From NCBI RefSeq assembly GCF_041886205.1, contig NZ_CP169029.1: a stretch of DNA of 64,000 bases. One strand, given 5' to 3'. This document shows positions 3,849-56,719 of this stretch, piece by piece. Numbering within the stretch: the stretch's first letter is position 1; each line of letters opens with the position of its first letter. The DNA comes from Escherichia coli (GTDB taxonomy: Bacteria; Pseudomonadota; Gammaproteobacteria; Enterobacterales; Enterobacteriaceae). A program made the translations under genes and the position numbers. A model generated the notes under the pieces. That model did no database searches and was not told the DNA's origin. It worked only from the letters and a program-made list of their open reading frames with translations.

Positions 3849-4876
3849 TATGCGGCCTCCCGTTTTTTACCTGACGAAGCGGGTTTAACGGATGGCGGTG
3901 GCGTCATAAAGCGGGCATATTTTTGCCGCCGCAGATTACGTTCCAGCGCACAACGCAGGCGTCCATCAAACACCAGCACCGCTAGCAGCACGAGGCCCGC
4001 GATAAAATCGTTCCACCATGCCGGAATGCGCAACAGCACCAGTACGCTATCGATCTGCGTCAGGAACCATGCGCCGAGTACCGCACCGATGATCGCACCG
4101 GAACCGCCGAGCAAACTAATGCCGCCCAGCACGCAGGCTGCAATTGCTTTCATCTCCAGCCCGGTACCGGTCTGGTTGGGGATAAAACCAATCTGCGAAG
4201 CAAACACAATCCCCGCCAGTGCCGCCATGCAGCCGTTCAACGAAAATGCCACAATGCGAATGGCTTCCGTACGAACGCCCAGTTGACGAGCTCCCTGTAA
4301 ATTATCGCCCGTGGCATAAAAACTGCGTCCAAACGCCGTCTTTGCCAGCAGCCAGGCCATAAATGCCACCAGAATTATCGTTAACTAACCAATTGCTGAA
4401 ACGCCAAGCAGCAGCGGGGCGGAGAGCTGTTTCAGTTCGGCGGGTAACCCCTCAATCCATTTACCGCCAGTCCACAGCAACATGATGCCTCTGTACAACC
4501 CTAACGAGCCAAGGGTGGCAACAATGGCAGGGATCTTTAGCCACGCGACCAGGACACCGTTGAAAAATCCCGCGAGCAAACCAAGCAGTAAAGTCGCGAC
4601 ACAGGCAACAGGTAGTGAATATCCTGCGTTCAGTAACATCCCCAACAGCACCGCGCACATTCCGGTAATCGAACCCACTGAAACATCAATATTGCGCGTA
4701 AGCATTACCAGCGTCGCGCCCATTGCCAGCAGGATCAGGATTTGCGCGCTGCTATAAACCATGGTCAGCGTTTGCACACTTAAATACTGGCGGTCGAGAA
4801 AACCGGGTAATACAAACAGCAGCACCACCGCCAGCAGTGCCGTGATTTCACGGTTGTTCTGAATAAACTTCAGCAT
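3848..4876 (-). pseudogene. lsrC: lsrC, AI-2 ABC transporter permease interrupted by an in-frame TAG stop at codon 164 (complement of 4385-4387)
   Basis: Two same-frame ORFs (4385..4876 and 3848..4369) separated only by one stop codon; total span 1029 nt = 342 codons + stop, the length of an intact LsrC; sequence around the stop reads [19 protein letters not shown] where a Trp codon (TGG) is expected. Confidence 0.8.
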
Positions 4877-53456: not shown

Positions 53457-53480
53457 ATGCGCCAGGATGCAGAGGTAATC

Positions 53481-55880
53481 ATGAAGCTAACCGATGCGGA
53501 TAATGCCGCCGATGGCATTTTTTTCCCCGCCCTTGAGCAAAATATGATGGGTGCGGTGTTAATTAACGAAAATGATGAAGTGATGTTTTTCAACCCCGCC
53601 GCAGAGAAGCTCTGGGGATACAAACGTGAAGAAGTCATTGGCAATAACATTGATATGCTGATTCCGCGGGATTTGCGTCCTGCGCATCCTGAATACATTC
53701 GTCACAACCGTGAAGGCGGTAAAGCGCGTGTTGAGGGGATGAGTCGGGAGCTGCAGCTAGAGAAAAAAGACGGCAGTAAAATCTGGACCCGTTTTGCGCT
53801 ATCGAAAGTGAGCGCCGAGGGGAAAGTTTATTACCTGGCGCTGGTACGGGATGCCAGCGTAGAAATGGCGCAAAAAGAACAGACCCGACAATTGATTATT
53901 GCCGTTGACCATCTCGACCGACCGGTGATTGTCCTCGATCCGGAACGCCATATTGTGCAGTGCAATCGCGCATTTACCGAAATGTTTGGTTACTGCATTA
54001 GCGAAGCCAGCGGTATGCAGCCCTATACACTCCTGAACATTCCTGAATTCCCTGCCGATAACCGCATTCGTTTACAACAGTTGCTATGGAAAACCGCCCG
54101 CGATCAGGACGAATTTCTGCTGTTGACGCGCACCGGTGAAAAAATCTGGATTAAAGCCTCTATCAGCCCGGTTTATGACGTGCTCGCGCATCTGCAGAAC
54201 CTGGTAATGACTTTCTCGGATATCACCGAAGAACGGCAGATTCGCCAGCTTGAAGGCAATATTCTCGCCGCCATGTGCAGCAGCCCGCCATTTCATGAAA
54301 TGGGGGAAATCATTTGTCGTAACATCGAATCTGTACTCAACGAATCGCATGTTTCGCTGTTCGCACTGCGCAACGGGATGCCGATACACTGGGCGTCATC
54401 TTCCCACGGTGCAGAAATTCAAAATGCGCAAAGCTGGTCAGCGACCATTCGTCAGCGTGATGGCGCGCCTGCGGGGATCCTGCAAATTAAAACCTCGTCA
54501 GGAGCAGAAACCAGCGCCTTTATCGAACGCGTGGCAGATATCAGCCAGCATATGGCCGCGCTGGCGCTGGAACAGGAAAAAAGCCGTCAGCATATTGAAC
54601 AACTCATCCAATTTGATCCGATGACCGGTCTGCCAAATCGCAATAACCTGCACAATTACCTCGATGACCTGGTCGACAAAGCCGTCTCTCCCGTGGTGTA
54701 TCTCATCGGTGTTGACCATATTCAGGATGTGATTGATAGCCTTGGCTATGCGTGGGCCGATCAGGCATTGCTGGAAGTGGTCAATCGCTTTCGTGAAAAA
54801 CTCAAACCGGATCAGTATCTCTGTCGTATCGAAGGTACGCAGTTTGTCCTCGTGAGCCTCGAAAACGACGTCAGTAACATTACCCAAATCGCCGATGAGC
54901 TACGGAATGTGGTCAGCAAGCCGATAATGATTGACGATAAACCCTTCCCGCTTACCTTGAGTATTGGCATCAGCTACGACCTGGGTAAAAACCGCGATTA
55001 CTTGCTCTCCACTGCTCACAATGCAATGGATTATATTCGCAAGAATGGCGGTAACGGCTGGCAGTTCTTCAGCCCGGCGATGAACGAAATGGTAAAAGAG
55101 CGTTTGGTTTTAGGCGCAGCGCTGAAAGAAGCGATTAGCAATAACCAACTGAAACTGGTTTACCAGCCGCAAATCTTCGCAGAAACGGGTGAACTGTACG
55201 GCATCGAAGCCCTTGCTCGCTGGCACGATCCCCTGCATGGTCATGTGCCCCCTTCACGGTTTATTCCTCTCGCAGAAGAGATTGGTGAAATCGAAAATAT
55301 TGGGCGCTGGGTCATCGCGGAAGCTTGCCGTCAGTTAGCAGAATGGCGTAGCCAGAATATTCATATCCCGGCGTTATCCGTGAACTTGTCGGCGCTGCAC
55401 TTTCGCAGTAATCAGCTGCCTAATCAGGTGTCTGATGCAATGCAAGCCTGGGGTATTGACGGCCACCAGCTGACGGTAGAAATCACGGAAAGCATGATGA
55501 TGGAACACGATACCGAAATCTTTAAGCGCATTCAGATCCTGCGTGATATGGGCGTGGGTTTATCGGTAGATGATTTTGGCACGGGCTTTTCCGGATTATC
55601 CCGCTTAGTCAGTCTTCCGGTAACGGAAATCAAAATTGACAAAAGTTTTGTCGATCGTTGTCTGACGGAAAAACGCATCCTTGCCTTACTTGAAGCCATT
55701 ACCAGTATCGGGCAAAGCCTCAATTTAACCGTCGTGGCGGAAGGCGTCGAAACCAAAGAGCAATTTGAGATGCTACGCAAGATCCACTGTCGCGTTATTC
55801 AGGGATATTTCTTTTCCCGCCCCCTACCCGCCGAAGAAATTCCAGGCTGGATGAGCAGCGTGTTACCGCTGAAAATCTGA
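53481..55880 (+). CDS. dosP: DosP, heme-PAS oxygen-sensing c-di-GMP phosphodiesterase (799 aa)
   Basis: PAS domains, degenerate GGDEF and EAL domain (EALAR); start set at MKLTDADNAADGIFF (ORF track extended 8 codons upstream); co-transcribed with dosC. Confidence 0.9.
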   Translation: MKLTDADNAADGIFFPALEQNMMGAVLINENDEVMFFNPAAEKLWGYKREEVIGNNIDMLIPRDLRPAHPEYIRHNREGGKARVEGMSRELQLEKKDGSKIWTRFALSKVSAEGKVYYLALVRDASVEMAQKEQTRQLIIAVDHLDRPVIVLDPERHIVQCNRAFTEMFGYCISEASGMQPYTLLNIPEFPADNRIRLQQLLWKTARDQDEFLLLTRTGEKIWIKASISPVYDVLAHLQNLVMTFSDITEERQIRQLEGNILAAMCSSPPFHEMGEIICRNIESVLNESHVSLFALRNGMPIHWASSSHGAEIQNAQSWSATIRQRDGAPAGILQIKTSSGAETSAFIERVADISQHMAALALEQEKSRQHIEQLIQFDPMTGLPNRNNLHNYLDDLVDKAVSPVVYLIGVDHIQDVIDSLGYAWADQALLEVVNRFREKLKPDQYLCRIEGTQFVLVSLENDVSNITQIADELRNVVSKPIMIDDKPFPLTLSIGISYDLGKNRDYLLSTAHNAMDYIRKNGGNGWQFFSPAMNEMVKERLVLGAALKEAISNNQLKLVYQPQIFAETGELYGIEALARWHDPLHGHVPPSRFIPLAEEIGEIENIGRWVIAEACRQLAEWRSQNIHIPALSVNLSALHFRSNQLPNQVSDAMQAWGIDGHQLTVEITESMMMEHDTEIFKRIQILRDMGVGLSVDDFGTGFSGLSRLVSLPVTEIKIDKSFVDRCLTEKRILALLEAITSIGQSLNLTVVAEGVETKEQFEMLRKIHCRVIQGYFFSRPLPAEEIPGWMSSVLPLKI

Positions 55881-55881
55881 C

Positions 55882-55902
55882 AAATTCCTCTCGCCCGCAC
55901 TC
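55882..55902 (+). terminator. Putative rho-independent terminator after dosP
   Basis: CCCGC-ACTC-GCGGG followed by TTTT. Confidence 0.5.
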
Positions 55903-56077
55903 GCGGGTTTTCATTTAACGTGACACTGTCACTTAAATACTGTGATTTCAGCTACGATTCCGGGAGATTCCTTCCTTAACTTCCCCTCTTGCACCAAAAC
56001 TGCACTACGCTGCACAAATGTTGATTAAAAGTTAAAAAATATAACTTTAAGCCAGCATTCTGGCGCTTCTCCCGGCA

Positions 56078-56093
56078 TGGCATGAGATCTGCA
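56078..56093 (+). promoter_or_regulatory. Candidate sigma-54 (-24/-12) promoter for ddpXABCDF
   Basis: TGGCATGAGATCTGCA matches TGGCAC-N5-TTGCA at 14 of 16 defined positions with GG-N10-GC spacing; about 45 bp upstream of ddpX; TGCACC-containing NtrC-like repeats lie about 55990-56025. Confidence 0.5.
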
Positions 56094-56137
56094 TAAGCGG
56101 AAAGCGCAGCAATTTTTGTCTTATACAGGAACCGTTT

Positions 56138-56719
56138 ATGTCGGATACCACCGAACTGGTTGATTTAGCCGTGATCTTCCCTGATCTGGAGATCGAATTG
56201 AAATACGCCTGCGCTGATAACATCACAGGTAAAGCTATTTACCAGCAAGCGCGTTGTCTGTTACACAAGGATGCGATTACCGCGCTGGCGAAAAGTATCA
56301 GTATCGCCCAGCTGTCAGGCTTACAACTGGTGATTTACGATGCGTATCGCCCACAACAAGCACAGGCGATGTTGTGGCAAGCCTGCCCAGACCCGCAATA
56401 TGTTGTTGATGTGACGGTCGGTTCTAATCACAGCCGTGGCACGGCGATCGACCTGACGCTTCGTGATGAGCACGGGAACATCCTGGATATGGGCGCAGGG
56501 TTCGATGAAATGCACGAGCGCTCCCATGCCTATCACCCTTCCGTCCCGCCCGCCGCTCAGCGCAATCGCCTGTTGCTGAATGCGATTATGACTGGTGGCG
56601 GTTTTGTCGGTATCTCCAGCGAATGGTGGCACTTCGAATTACCCCAGGCAGCGAGTTACCCTCTGCTCGCTGATCAATTCACCTGTTTTATATCCCCTGG
56701 CACACAGCACGTCAGTTAA
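56138..56719 (+). CDS. ddpX: DdpX, D-Ala-D-Ala dipeptidase (VanX homologue), 193 aa
   Basis: Zn-dipeptidase motifs (SNHSRGTAIDLTL, EWWHFE); first gene of the ddp operon. Confidence 0.9.
   Translation: MSDTTELVDLAVIFPDLEIELKYACADNITGKAIYQQARCLLHKDAITALAKSISIAQLSGLQLVIYDAYRPQQAQAMLWQACPDPQYVVDVTVGSNHSRGTAIDLTLRDEHGNILDMGAGFDEMHERSHAYHPSVPPAAQRNRLLLNAIMTGGGFVGISSEWWHFELPQAASYPLLADQFTCFISPGTQHVS

Follow-up and report, generated by a model that had tools for sequence, protein, structure and literature searches.

Introduction

The DNA between dosP and ddpX in Escherichia coli raises the question of which elements direct transcription of the ddpXABCDF operon when nitrogen becomes limiting and, more particularly, which bases upstream of the promoter the regulator NtrC would use. 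The window analysed here, a stretch of 64,000 nucleotides, is an E. coli chromosome segment that runs from dosP through ddpXABCDF, and a first-pass annotation made from its letters alone had proposed a sigma-54 promoter preceded by NtrC-like repeats in front of ddpX. The feature is real, ordinary, and already known: it is the published nitrogen-starvation promoter of the ddpX operon, driven by sigma-54 and NtrC, and the assignment to sigma-54, the orientation, and the link to nitrogen limitation that had been proposed all match published experiments on exactly this sequence.

The dosP–ddpX Region

The elements of the region are collected in Table 1. ddpA and the remaining genes of the operon lie downstream of ddpX, and the terminator-like hairpin beyond dosP probably insulates ddpX from dosCP read-through.

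Table 1. Elements of the dosP–ddpX region in window coordinates; site centres are relative to the predicted start, and NtrC scores are matches out of 14 scored positions.
Feature	Position	Strand	Remarks
dosP ORF	53457–55880		
Terminator-like hairpin followed by a T run	55893–55908	+	13 nt past the dosP stop (55880)
Conserved upstream activating block	55990–56035	+	Both NtrC-type sites through GTTAA
Putative distal NtrC-type site, TGCACCAAAACTGCACT	55990–56006	+	Centre -106; 9/14
Putative proximal NtrC-type site, TGCACAAATGTTGATTA	56011–56027	+	Centre -85; 9/14 here
A+T-rich spacer between UAS and promoter	56021–56046		90% A+T at 56021–56040
Sigma-54 -24/-12 element, ATGGCATGAGATCTGCA	56077–56093	+	ddpXp; published site OS16
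Predicted transcription start	56104	+	34 nt 5' of the ATG
5' leader, short	56104–56137	+	Shine–Dalgarno AGGA at 56127–56130
ddpX	56138–56719	+	D-alanyl-D-alanine dipeptidase; first gene of ddpXABCDF

The ddpX promoter is present in 4169 of 5426 complete E. coli genomes, the dosP 3' end being found in 5391, and the DNA corresponding to window 55960–56300 (the promoter and ddpX) is missing from about 22% of them, which places the ddp operon in the variable portion of the E. coli genome. A perfect palindrome, GTGACA-C-TGTCAC (55920–55932), some 180 bp before the ddpX start, is invariant in the eight Escherichia sequences aligned, with variable DNA around it, and no matching regulator consensus was recognised for it. 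It is followed at 55941 by TGTGA, which resembles a CRP half-site; expression of ddpX reportedly falls in a cya mutant.

The Sigma-54 Core Promoter

The motif TGGCATGAGATCTGCA, which the first-pass annotation had placed at 56078–56093 with GG-N10-GC spacing, is found exactly there, with GG at 56079–56080, GC at 56091–56092, and 10 nt between them; 44 nt precede the ATG of ddpX (56138), close to the 45 bp or so that had been claimed. Written as TGGCAT-GAGAT-CTGCA (56078–56093), it departs from TGGCAC-N5-TTGCW at two positions, both of them common variants, and it is invariant in all nine Escherichia sequences compared. The motif is intergenic and lies on the + strand, between the dosP terminator and ddpX.

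A weight matrix was derived from the 41 other intergenic, sense-oriented sigma-54 sites detected by ChIP-seq (Bonocora 2015, Table 1), leaving out the ddpX site itself. On both strands of the 64-kb window, the top match to this matrix is 56077–56093, with 15.8 bits compared with a training median of 16.3. Matches of that score are expected 0.6 times per shuffled window, at least one being present in 15 of 30 dinucleotide shuffles, and the window would be expected to contain 0.43 copies of the degenerate pattern TGGCAYN5YTGCW. Therefore, the motif alone proves nothing, and the ddpX site owes its significance to where it lies and how it is oriented, to its conservation, and to binding data from the literature.

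Two other matches to the matrix deserve mention. TTGGCGTGAATCCTGCT, at 62364–62380 on the + strand, lies antisense within osmC (62158–62589, minus strand) and scores 15.75 bits, equal to the ddpX site; K-12 reads CCGCT instead of CTGCT there, and osmC is not mentioned in the text of Bonocora 2015. This match is either a product of chance or a strain-specific intragenic site. The third-best match in the window, GTGGCATAAAAACTGCG at 4311–4327 (+), reaches 13.8 bits.

Published Evidence for Sigma-54 and NtrC Control

Zhao, Liu and Burgess (NAR 2010, PMC2831329) printed 'ggcaTGGCATGAGATCTGCATAagcg' at -60..-43 of ddpX in their Table 2, a string that maps to window 56074–56099, and reported that ddpX rises 2.7-fold on rpoN induction and falls 2.1-fold in an rpoN deletion. 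Bonocora et al. (PLoS Genet 2015, PMC4591121) detected the sigma-54 ChIP-seq site OS16, with motif ATGGCATGAGATCTGCA, a fold-above-threshold score of 10, and a peak whose centre is 4 bp off that of the motif; its earlier status in EcoCyc was 'predicted', and they list a distance of 34 to ddpX. In nitrogen-starved cells, a 24-fold NtrC ChIP-seq peak covers K-12 positions 1561101–1561181 (Brown et al., Nat Commun 2014, PMC4066584), an interval that corresponds to window 56057–56137, over the promoter. Shimada et al. (Microb Genom 2021, PMC8743547) found a gSELEX peak at the ddpX site and observed NtrC-probe, RpoN holoenzyme-probe, and ternary complexes in gel shifts, with a probe whose primers map to window 55806–56214 (409 bp) and which, thus, encloses the upstream repeats; upon nitrogen depletion, ddpX mRNA increased 104.5-fold, and the authors concluded that both RpoN and NtrC are required. 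Published experiments have in this way established sigma-54 occupancy, NtrC association (in vivo, and in vitro on the 409-bp probe), and strong induction by nitrogen depletion. The rise of ddpF by only 2.2-fold, compared with 104-fold for ddpX, could be explained by an internal sigma-70 'constitutive promoter' located between ddpA and ddpB, downstream of 56733 (Shimada et al. 2014).

The resolution of the published NtrC binding at ddpX is that of the 409-bp probe and of a ChIP bin of 80 bp with the promoter at its centre. Neither nucleotide-level mapping of the ddpX start nor an NtrC footprint was found in the accessible literature, the available portion of the Shimada 2021 text gives ddpX primer sequences only and no ddpX NtrC-box sequence, and a full-text literature search returned no paper in which the upstream repeat sequences are printed. 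The NtrC ChIP-seq peak itself was considered as a locator of the upstream activating sequences (UAS) and was rejected, as the peaks at known Ntr promoters sit on the promoter too: those at glnA, glnK, glnH, and nac are reported within an interval from about 11 bp before to 50 bp after the centre of the sigma-54 motif, with the same offset at astC, rutA, gltI, and yhdW, and likewise at argT and patA. The glnA peak lies on the promoter despite an enhancer that we take to be at -108/-140, away from that peak, and, therefore, an NtrC peak cannot locate the UAS.

Regarding the start of transcription, a position near 56105 had been claimed. The 'Distance' column of the Bonocora table holds a value of 73 for glnA, which is presumably the glnAp2 leader length. 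If this column is read as leader length, the value of 34 for ddpX would place the start at window 56104, in agreement with the earlier claim.

Probable NtrC-Type Sites Upstream of the Promoter

TGCAC occurs three times on the + strand, at 55990, 56001, and 56011, with spacings of 11 and 10 bp. The repeats that had been described about 60–90 bp upstream, TTGCACCAAAACTGCAC (55989–56005) and GCTGCACAAA (56009–56018), are indeed located 61–89 bp before the -24 GG. Three copies in the same orientation within 22 bp are found once in the window, compared with 0.023 expected, and in 2.3% of 300 shuffles. A cluster statistic for TGCAC/GTGCA in either orientation was dropped, since overlapping GTGCAC inflates the count (shuffle mean of 1.23).

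The NtrC consensus used for the scan was TGCACCAnnnTGGTGCA, a 17-bp dyad with 14 scored positions. Each of the 17-mers starting at 55990, 56001, and 56011 matches it at 9 of the 14, and no full NtrC palindrome is present among the repeats, the best score being 9/14 in the window and 10/14 in K-12. Matches of 9/14 occur at approximately 0.2% of window positions, and others lie at 56051 and 56147. The distal site has a perfect left half, TGCACCA, and the proximal one the left half TGCACAA, both followed by a degenerate right half; their centres are 21 bp apart, equivalent to two helical turns, and both fall within the zone expected of NtrC sites, about 80–160 bp upstream of the start. The upstream block probably consists of two weak, half-canonical NtrC-type sites of 17 bp. 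The connection of the repeats with NtrC is supported indirectly, by probe binding, conservation, and enrichment. Two 17-bp sites describe them better than three repeats, since only a few lineages conserve the middle TGCAC.

The scan was calibrated with twelve other K-12 NtrC/sigma-54 promoters taken from NC_000913.3. It recovered matches at glnA -140 (13/14) and -108 (12/14), glnH -108/-121, and nac -152, which we take to be the mapped enhancer positions, as well as two further glnA matches of 9/14, at -89 and -68, which presumably correspond to low-affinity sites. At glnK, rutA, yhdW, and patA, the best matches reach only 9–10/14. The ddpX scores are in the range of these four promoters and of the two 9/14 glnA matches, and its sites therefore belong to the weak class and are not anomalous.

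The proximal site scores 10/14 in K-12 and in most E. coli, which have C at 56026. The strain of the window has T at this position, which lowers the score to 9/14, and the 51-mer carrying this T is found exactly in 14 of 4214 genomes; the strain also has C, not A, at 56069, with exact matches in 668 of 4170 genomes. A more drastic natural change is found in strain 98197 (NZ_CP173573.1, L081), in which a deletion fuses a truncated dosC to window 56018, so that dosP and all three copies of TGCAC (55990–56015) are gone, while the -24/-12 promoter and the right part of the proximal site are kept. This strain is, in effect, a ready-made UAS-deletion strain.

Conservation of the Promoter and the Upstream Block

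The footprint within the genus was obtained from an alignment of eight sequences that includes two divergent Escherichia lineages. Variable columns make up 40% of the terminator region, 28% of the spacer at 55936–55985, and 9% of the leader, with 2 of 42 in 55986–56027 and 1 of 17 in the -24/-12 17-mer. The intergenic region has two conserved islands, the upstream block at 55990–56035 and the -24/-12 core, and both are found again in Citrobacter, Enterobacter, and Mixta; no other part of the region is as conserved between genera as the upstream block.

Across genera, 39 sequences from Escherichia, Citrobacter, Enterobacter, Lelliottia, Huaxiibacter, Mixta, and one MAG share a near-invariant block, TGCACCAAAA-sTGmACTAyGCTGCACAwwTGTTGATC-N4-GTTAA, with scrambled DNA on either side. 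As the block is kept amid scrambled flanks, the E. coli block is orthologous to the others and under selection. Within it, TGCACCAAAA, in the distal site, is nearly invariant in Escherichia, Citrobacter, Enterobacter, and Mixta, and GCTGCACAAATGTTGATC, in the proximal site, hardly varies from genus to genus; as the middle pentamer, most genera have TGAAC instead of TGCAC. Moreover, the non-consensus bases TTGATC and GTTAA are conserved as strongly as those of the NtrC consensus, and NtrC binding by itself does not obviously account for their conservation.

The pair of sites spaced by 21 bp is also found in Mixta, Brenneria, and Lonsdalea. At the equivalent position, distant genera have better dyads, such as TGCACCGATTTTGTGCA and TGCACCTTCATTGTGCA at -120 (12/14), TGCCCCAATGTGATGCA at -151, and, in Serratia, TGCCCAATTGTTGTGCA at -133. 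Among 69 orthologous promoters, 75% have a site scoring 10/14 or more in the zone from -200 to -60, and 32% have one scoring 11/14 or more, compared with 5.8% and 0.8%, respectively, in random 140-bp windows from the same loci; these 69 loci are phylogenetically related, so that 75% versus 5.8% is to be read as an enrichment and not as a probability.

Comparison with Known Sigma-54/NtrC Promoters

The ddpXp promoter of K-12 is the same locus with an identical 17-mer, ATGGCATGAGATCTGCA, and nothing in the window is different in kind; a K-12-like strain differs from it at only two intergenic positions, 56026 and 56069, outside the core elements. Likeness to glnAp2 is found in the sigma-54 -24/-12 element, in a pair of NtrC-type sites that lie some 100 bp upstream along one face of the helix, and in the activation by nitrogen limitation. 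However, the glnAp2 dyads are strong (13/14 and 12/14) and are located at -140/-108, 32 bp apart, whereas those of ddpX are half-canonical (9–10/14), at -106/-85, and 21 bp apart. From these matches, the affinity of NtrC for ddpX is expected to be below that for glnAp2 and, therefore, activation of ddpX should need a high level of NtrC~P.

The promoters of glnK, rutA, yhdW, and patA are closer relatives, with best NtrC matches of 9–10/14 at -87 to -193, scavenging functions, and NtrC ChIP-seq peaks on the promoter. In contrast to them, ddpX has a block whose conservation between genera is unusual for sites this weak, and it is additionally strongly RpoS-dependent. With glnHp2, which is IHF-assisted, ddpX shares close NtrC sites (near -108/-121 in glnHp2) and an A+T-rich segment between UAS and promoter, but no match to the IHF consensus WATCAANNNNTTR with one mismatch or fewer was found in 55881–56137 on either strand. 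An apparent IHF site on the minus strand, AATCAAcattTGT, was discarded, having two mismatches in the window and three in K-12. The A+T-rich spacer of ddpX (56021–56046) may itself be an intrinsic bend, and any bending at this promoter would be intrinsic or mediated by an unrecognised site.

Alternative Explanations

The extent to which NtrC alone accounts for the upstream block can be questioned, as 55990–56035 could serve mainly another regulator, or NtrC together with a second factor, with the NtrC contacts elsewhere in the 409-bp probe. The modest consensus matches (9–10 of 14), the cross-genus conservation of TTGATC and GTTAA, and the additional 9/14 matches at 56051 and 56147 would be in line with this, and so would the responses of ddpX to RpoS, cya (cAMP), and PdhR, which a model with NtrC and sigma-54 leaves unexplained: expression of ddpX is lower in a cya mutant and more than 205-fold higher in an EHEC pdhR mutant. 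A second factor binding with NtrC on a composite block might explain these three effects. Nevertheless, the pdhR effect is probably an indirect nitrogen-status signal, because yhdX and argT, members of the NtrC regulon, rise as well in the same EHEC mutant. The position at -85/-106 and the geometry of two sites separated by two helical turns are typical of NtrC enhancers, distant genera have good NtrC dyads (11–12/14) at the equivalent place, e.g., TGCACCGATTTTGTGCA, and NtrC-type matches are enriched there (75% versus 5.8%). No Nac box (ATA-N9-TAT) was found at the ddpX promoter region, and the scans for IHF and for sigma-70-type promoters gave no consensus either. A main role of the block for another regulator, or for NtrC with a second factor, is regarded as improbable. 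The RpoS effect could also have a distinct cause, namely a separate sigma-S or sigma-70 promoter that would operate beside the sigma-54 one and give stationary-phase expression. Expression of ddpXA is RpoS-dependent in EDL933 (39-fold), and ddp co-varies with ast, an operon listed under RpoS, RpoN, ArgR, and NtrC. RpoS-dependent expression in the stationary phase was reportedly also described by Lessard et al. in 1998. Yet a lenient scan of 55700–56300 revealed no -35/-10 pair with a spacer of 16–18 nt, the best -10-like hexamer (TATAAC, 56040) does not end in the conserved T and is not preceded by a -35 at a workable spacing, and the RpoS effect can be indirect, all of which make such a promoter unlikely.

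A further possibility concerns the distal repeat, since CTTGCACCAAAACTGCA (55988–56004) scores 12.9 bits, the fourth best in the window, and could be a second, weak docking site for sigma-54, acting as a tandem or decoy promoter. It resembles the weak ChIP site of potF (TATGCACGTTTATTGCA), likewise without the first G, and it may explain the extra holoenzyme bands in the gel shifts of Shimada 2021. However, the near-invariant GG is missing (CTTGCACCAAAACTGCA has TG instead), the only ChIP-seq peak listed has its centre 4 bp away from the main motif, and the '-12' part reads CTGAA/GTGAA in Citrobacter and Enterobacter, where the GC is destroyed and the rest of the block conserved; selection is therefore not on a -12 element, and a docking role for this repeat appears very unlikely. 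CTTGCACCAAAACTGCA overlaps the distal NtrC-type site, an instance of NtrC half-sites mimicking -24/-12 elements. Finally, the motif and the repeats could be functionless matches, given that 0.6 matches of such a score are expected per 64 kb and that an equally good one (15.75 bits) lies antisense in osmC at 62364–62380. Published results on exactly this site, from ChIP-seq, gSELEX, gel shifts, and expression measurements, have already refuted this idea, and the conservation of the site across genera also speaks against it, leaving it a negligible chance.

Proposed Mechanism of Activation

The best overall explanation, which we hold with high confidence, is that sigma-54 holoenzyme at 56077–56093 and NtrC~P on the 55990–56027 block drive ddpXABCDF in nitrogen limitation. 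In this mechanism, sigma-54 RNA polymerase would bind 56077–56093 as a closed complex that is unable to melt the DNA unaided. When nitrogen is limiting, phosphorylated NtrC (GlnG) would assemble on the block located about 85–106 bp upstream of the start, which is probably composed of two tandem low-affinity 17-bp sites, 55990–56006 and 56011–56027, and would oligomerise on these weak sites once its concentration is high. NtrC would then loop across the A+T-rich spacer to contact the holoenzyme, and its ATP hydrolysis would open the promoter, with transcription predicted to start near 56104. The bases touched by NtrC, the exact start, the looping geometry, and the bending are what we infer in this scheme. 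Weak sites would suit an operon expected to respond to severe nitrogen starvation alone.

An RpiR-Family Gene between Promoter and ddpX in Other Enterobacterales

Immediately upstream of ddpX, no sigma-54 motif was found in most Enterobacterales. When 2.5 kb upstream was scanned, a sigma-54 motif of 13–18.6 bits, e.g., ATGGCACGCGTCCTGCA, appeared about 950 nt before ddpX in 69 of 80 Enterobacterales loci, approximately 55 nt before a co-oriented gene of 284 aa with an RpiR-type HTH domain, which ends 12 nt before ddpX; in locus L014 (of L003–L080), for example, the motif occupies 1561–1577 and the RpiR-family gene 1634–2488. In these 69 loci, the orthologous sigma-54 promoter and UAS head the RpiR-family gene, followed by ddpX. 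Escherichia lacks this gene and has the promoter directly adjoining ddpX, and no homologue of the RpiR-like protein was found in the 64-kb window.

Two bases past the -12 element (CTGCAT), the homology across genera breaks off. It is picked up again immediately 5' of the ATG at TATACAGGAACCGT, whose homologue in Citrobacter likewise precedes ddpX; 1 of 200 shuffles scores as well. Putative remnants of an RpiR-like ORF in the E. coli leader (AAGCGGAAAGCG; CAGCAATTT) were not significant, as 13–17 and 109 of 200 shuffles, respectively, equalled them. In other genera, a TTGTTA-N6-TAACA palindrome that is absent in E. coli overlaps the start and resembles an operator. In two distant loci, from an Enterobacterales MAG (L038:2300-2500) and from Erwinia endophytica (L072:2280-2500), a strong sigma-54 motif, of 15.5 and 17.9 bits, respectively, adjoins ddpX as it does in Escherichia, and both contain a CTGCACA-N3/4-TTGAT element, at -112 and -129, which suggests that the arrangement without the RpiR-family gene arose, or was retained, more than once.

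One tentative reading combines a composite upstream block, used by NtrC and a second factor, with an origin of the Escherichia promoter as a derived fusion, in which an ancestral operon made of sigma-54 promoter, RpiR gene, and ddpX appears to have lost the regulator together with the TTGTTA-N6-TAACA palindrome. Taken as a pair, these two propositions seem doubtful; if the derived fusion were true, ddp would have been left under nitrogen control alone.

Conclusions

The analysis does little more than confirm what is known of ddp: its membership in the NtrC/sigma-54 nitrogen-scavenging regulon is established, and its exact promoter sequence has already been printed in at least two papers. Its added value lies in a concrete assignment of two putative NtrC sites, at -106 and -85, backed by conservation across genera, and in the cross-genus context provided by the RpiR-family gene that is located between promoter and ddpX in most other Enterobacterales. 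The missing RpiR-family gene implies that an extra layer of control exists in other genera and is absent from E. coli, and RpiR-family control perhaps senses a sugar or a peptide derived from the cell wall.
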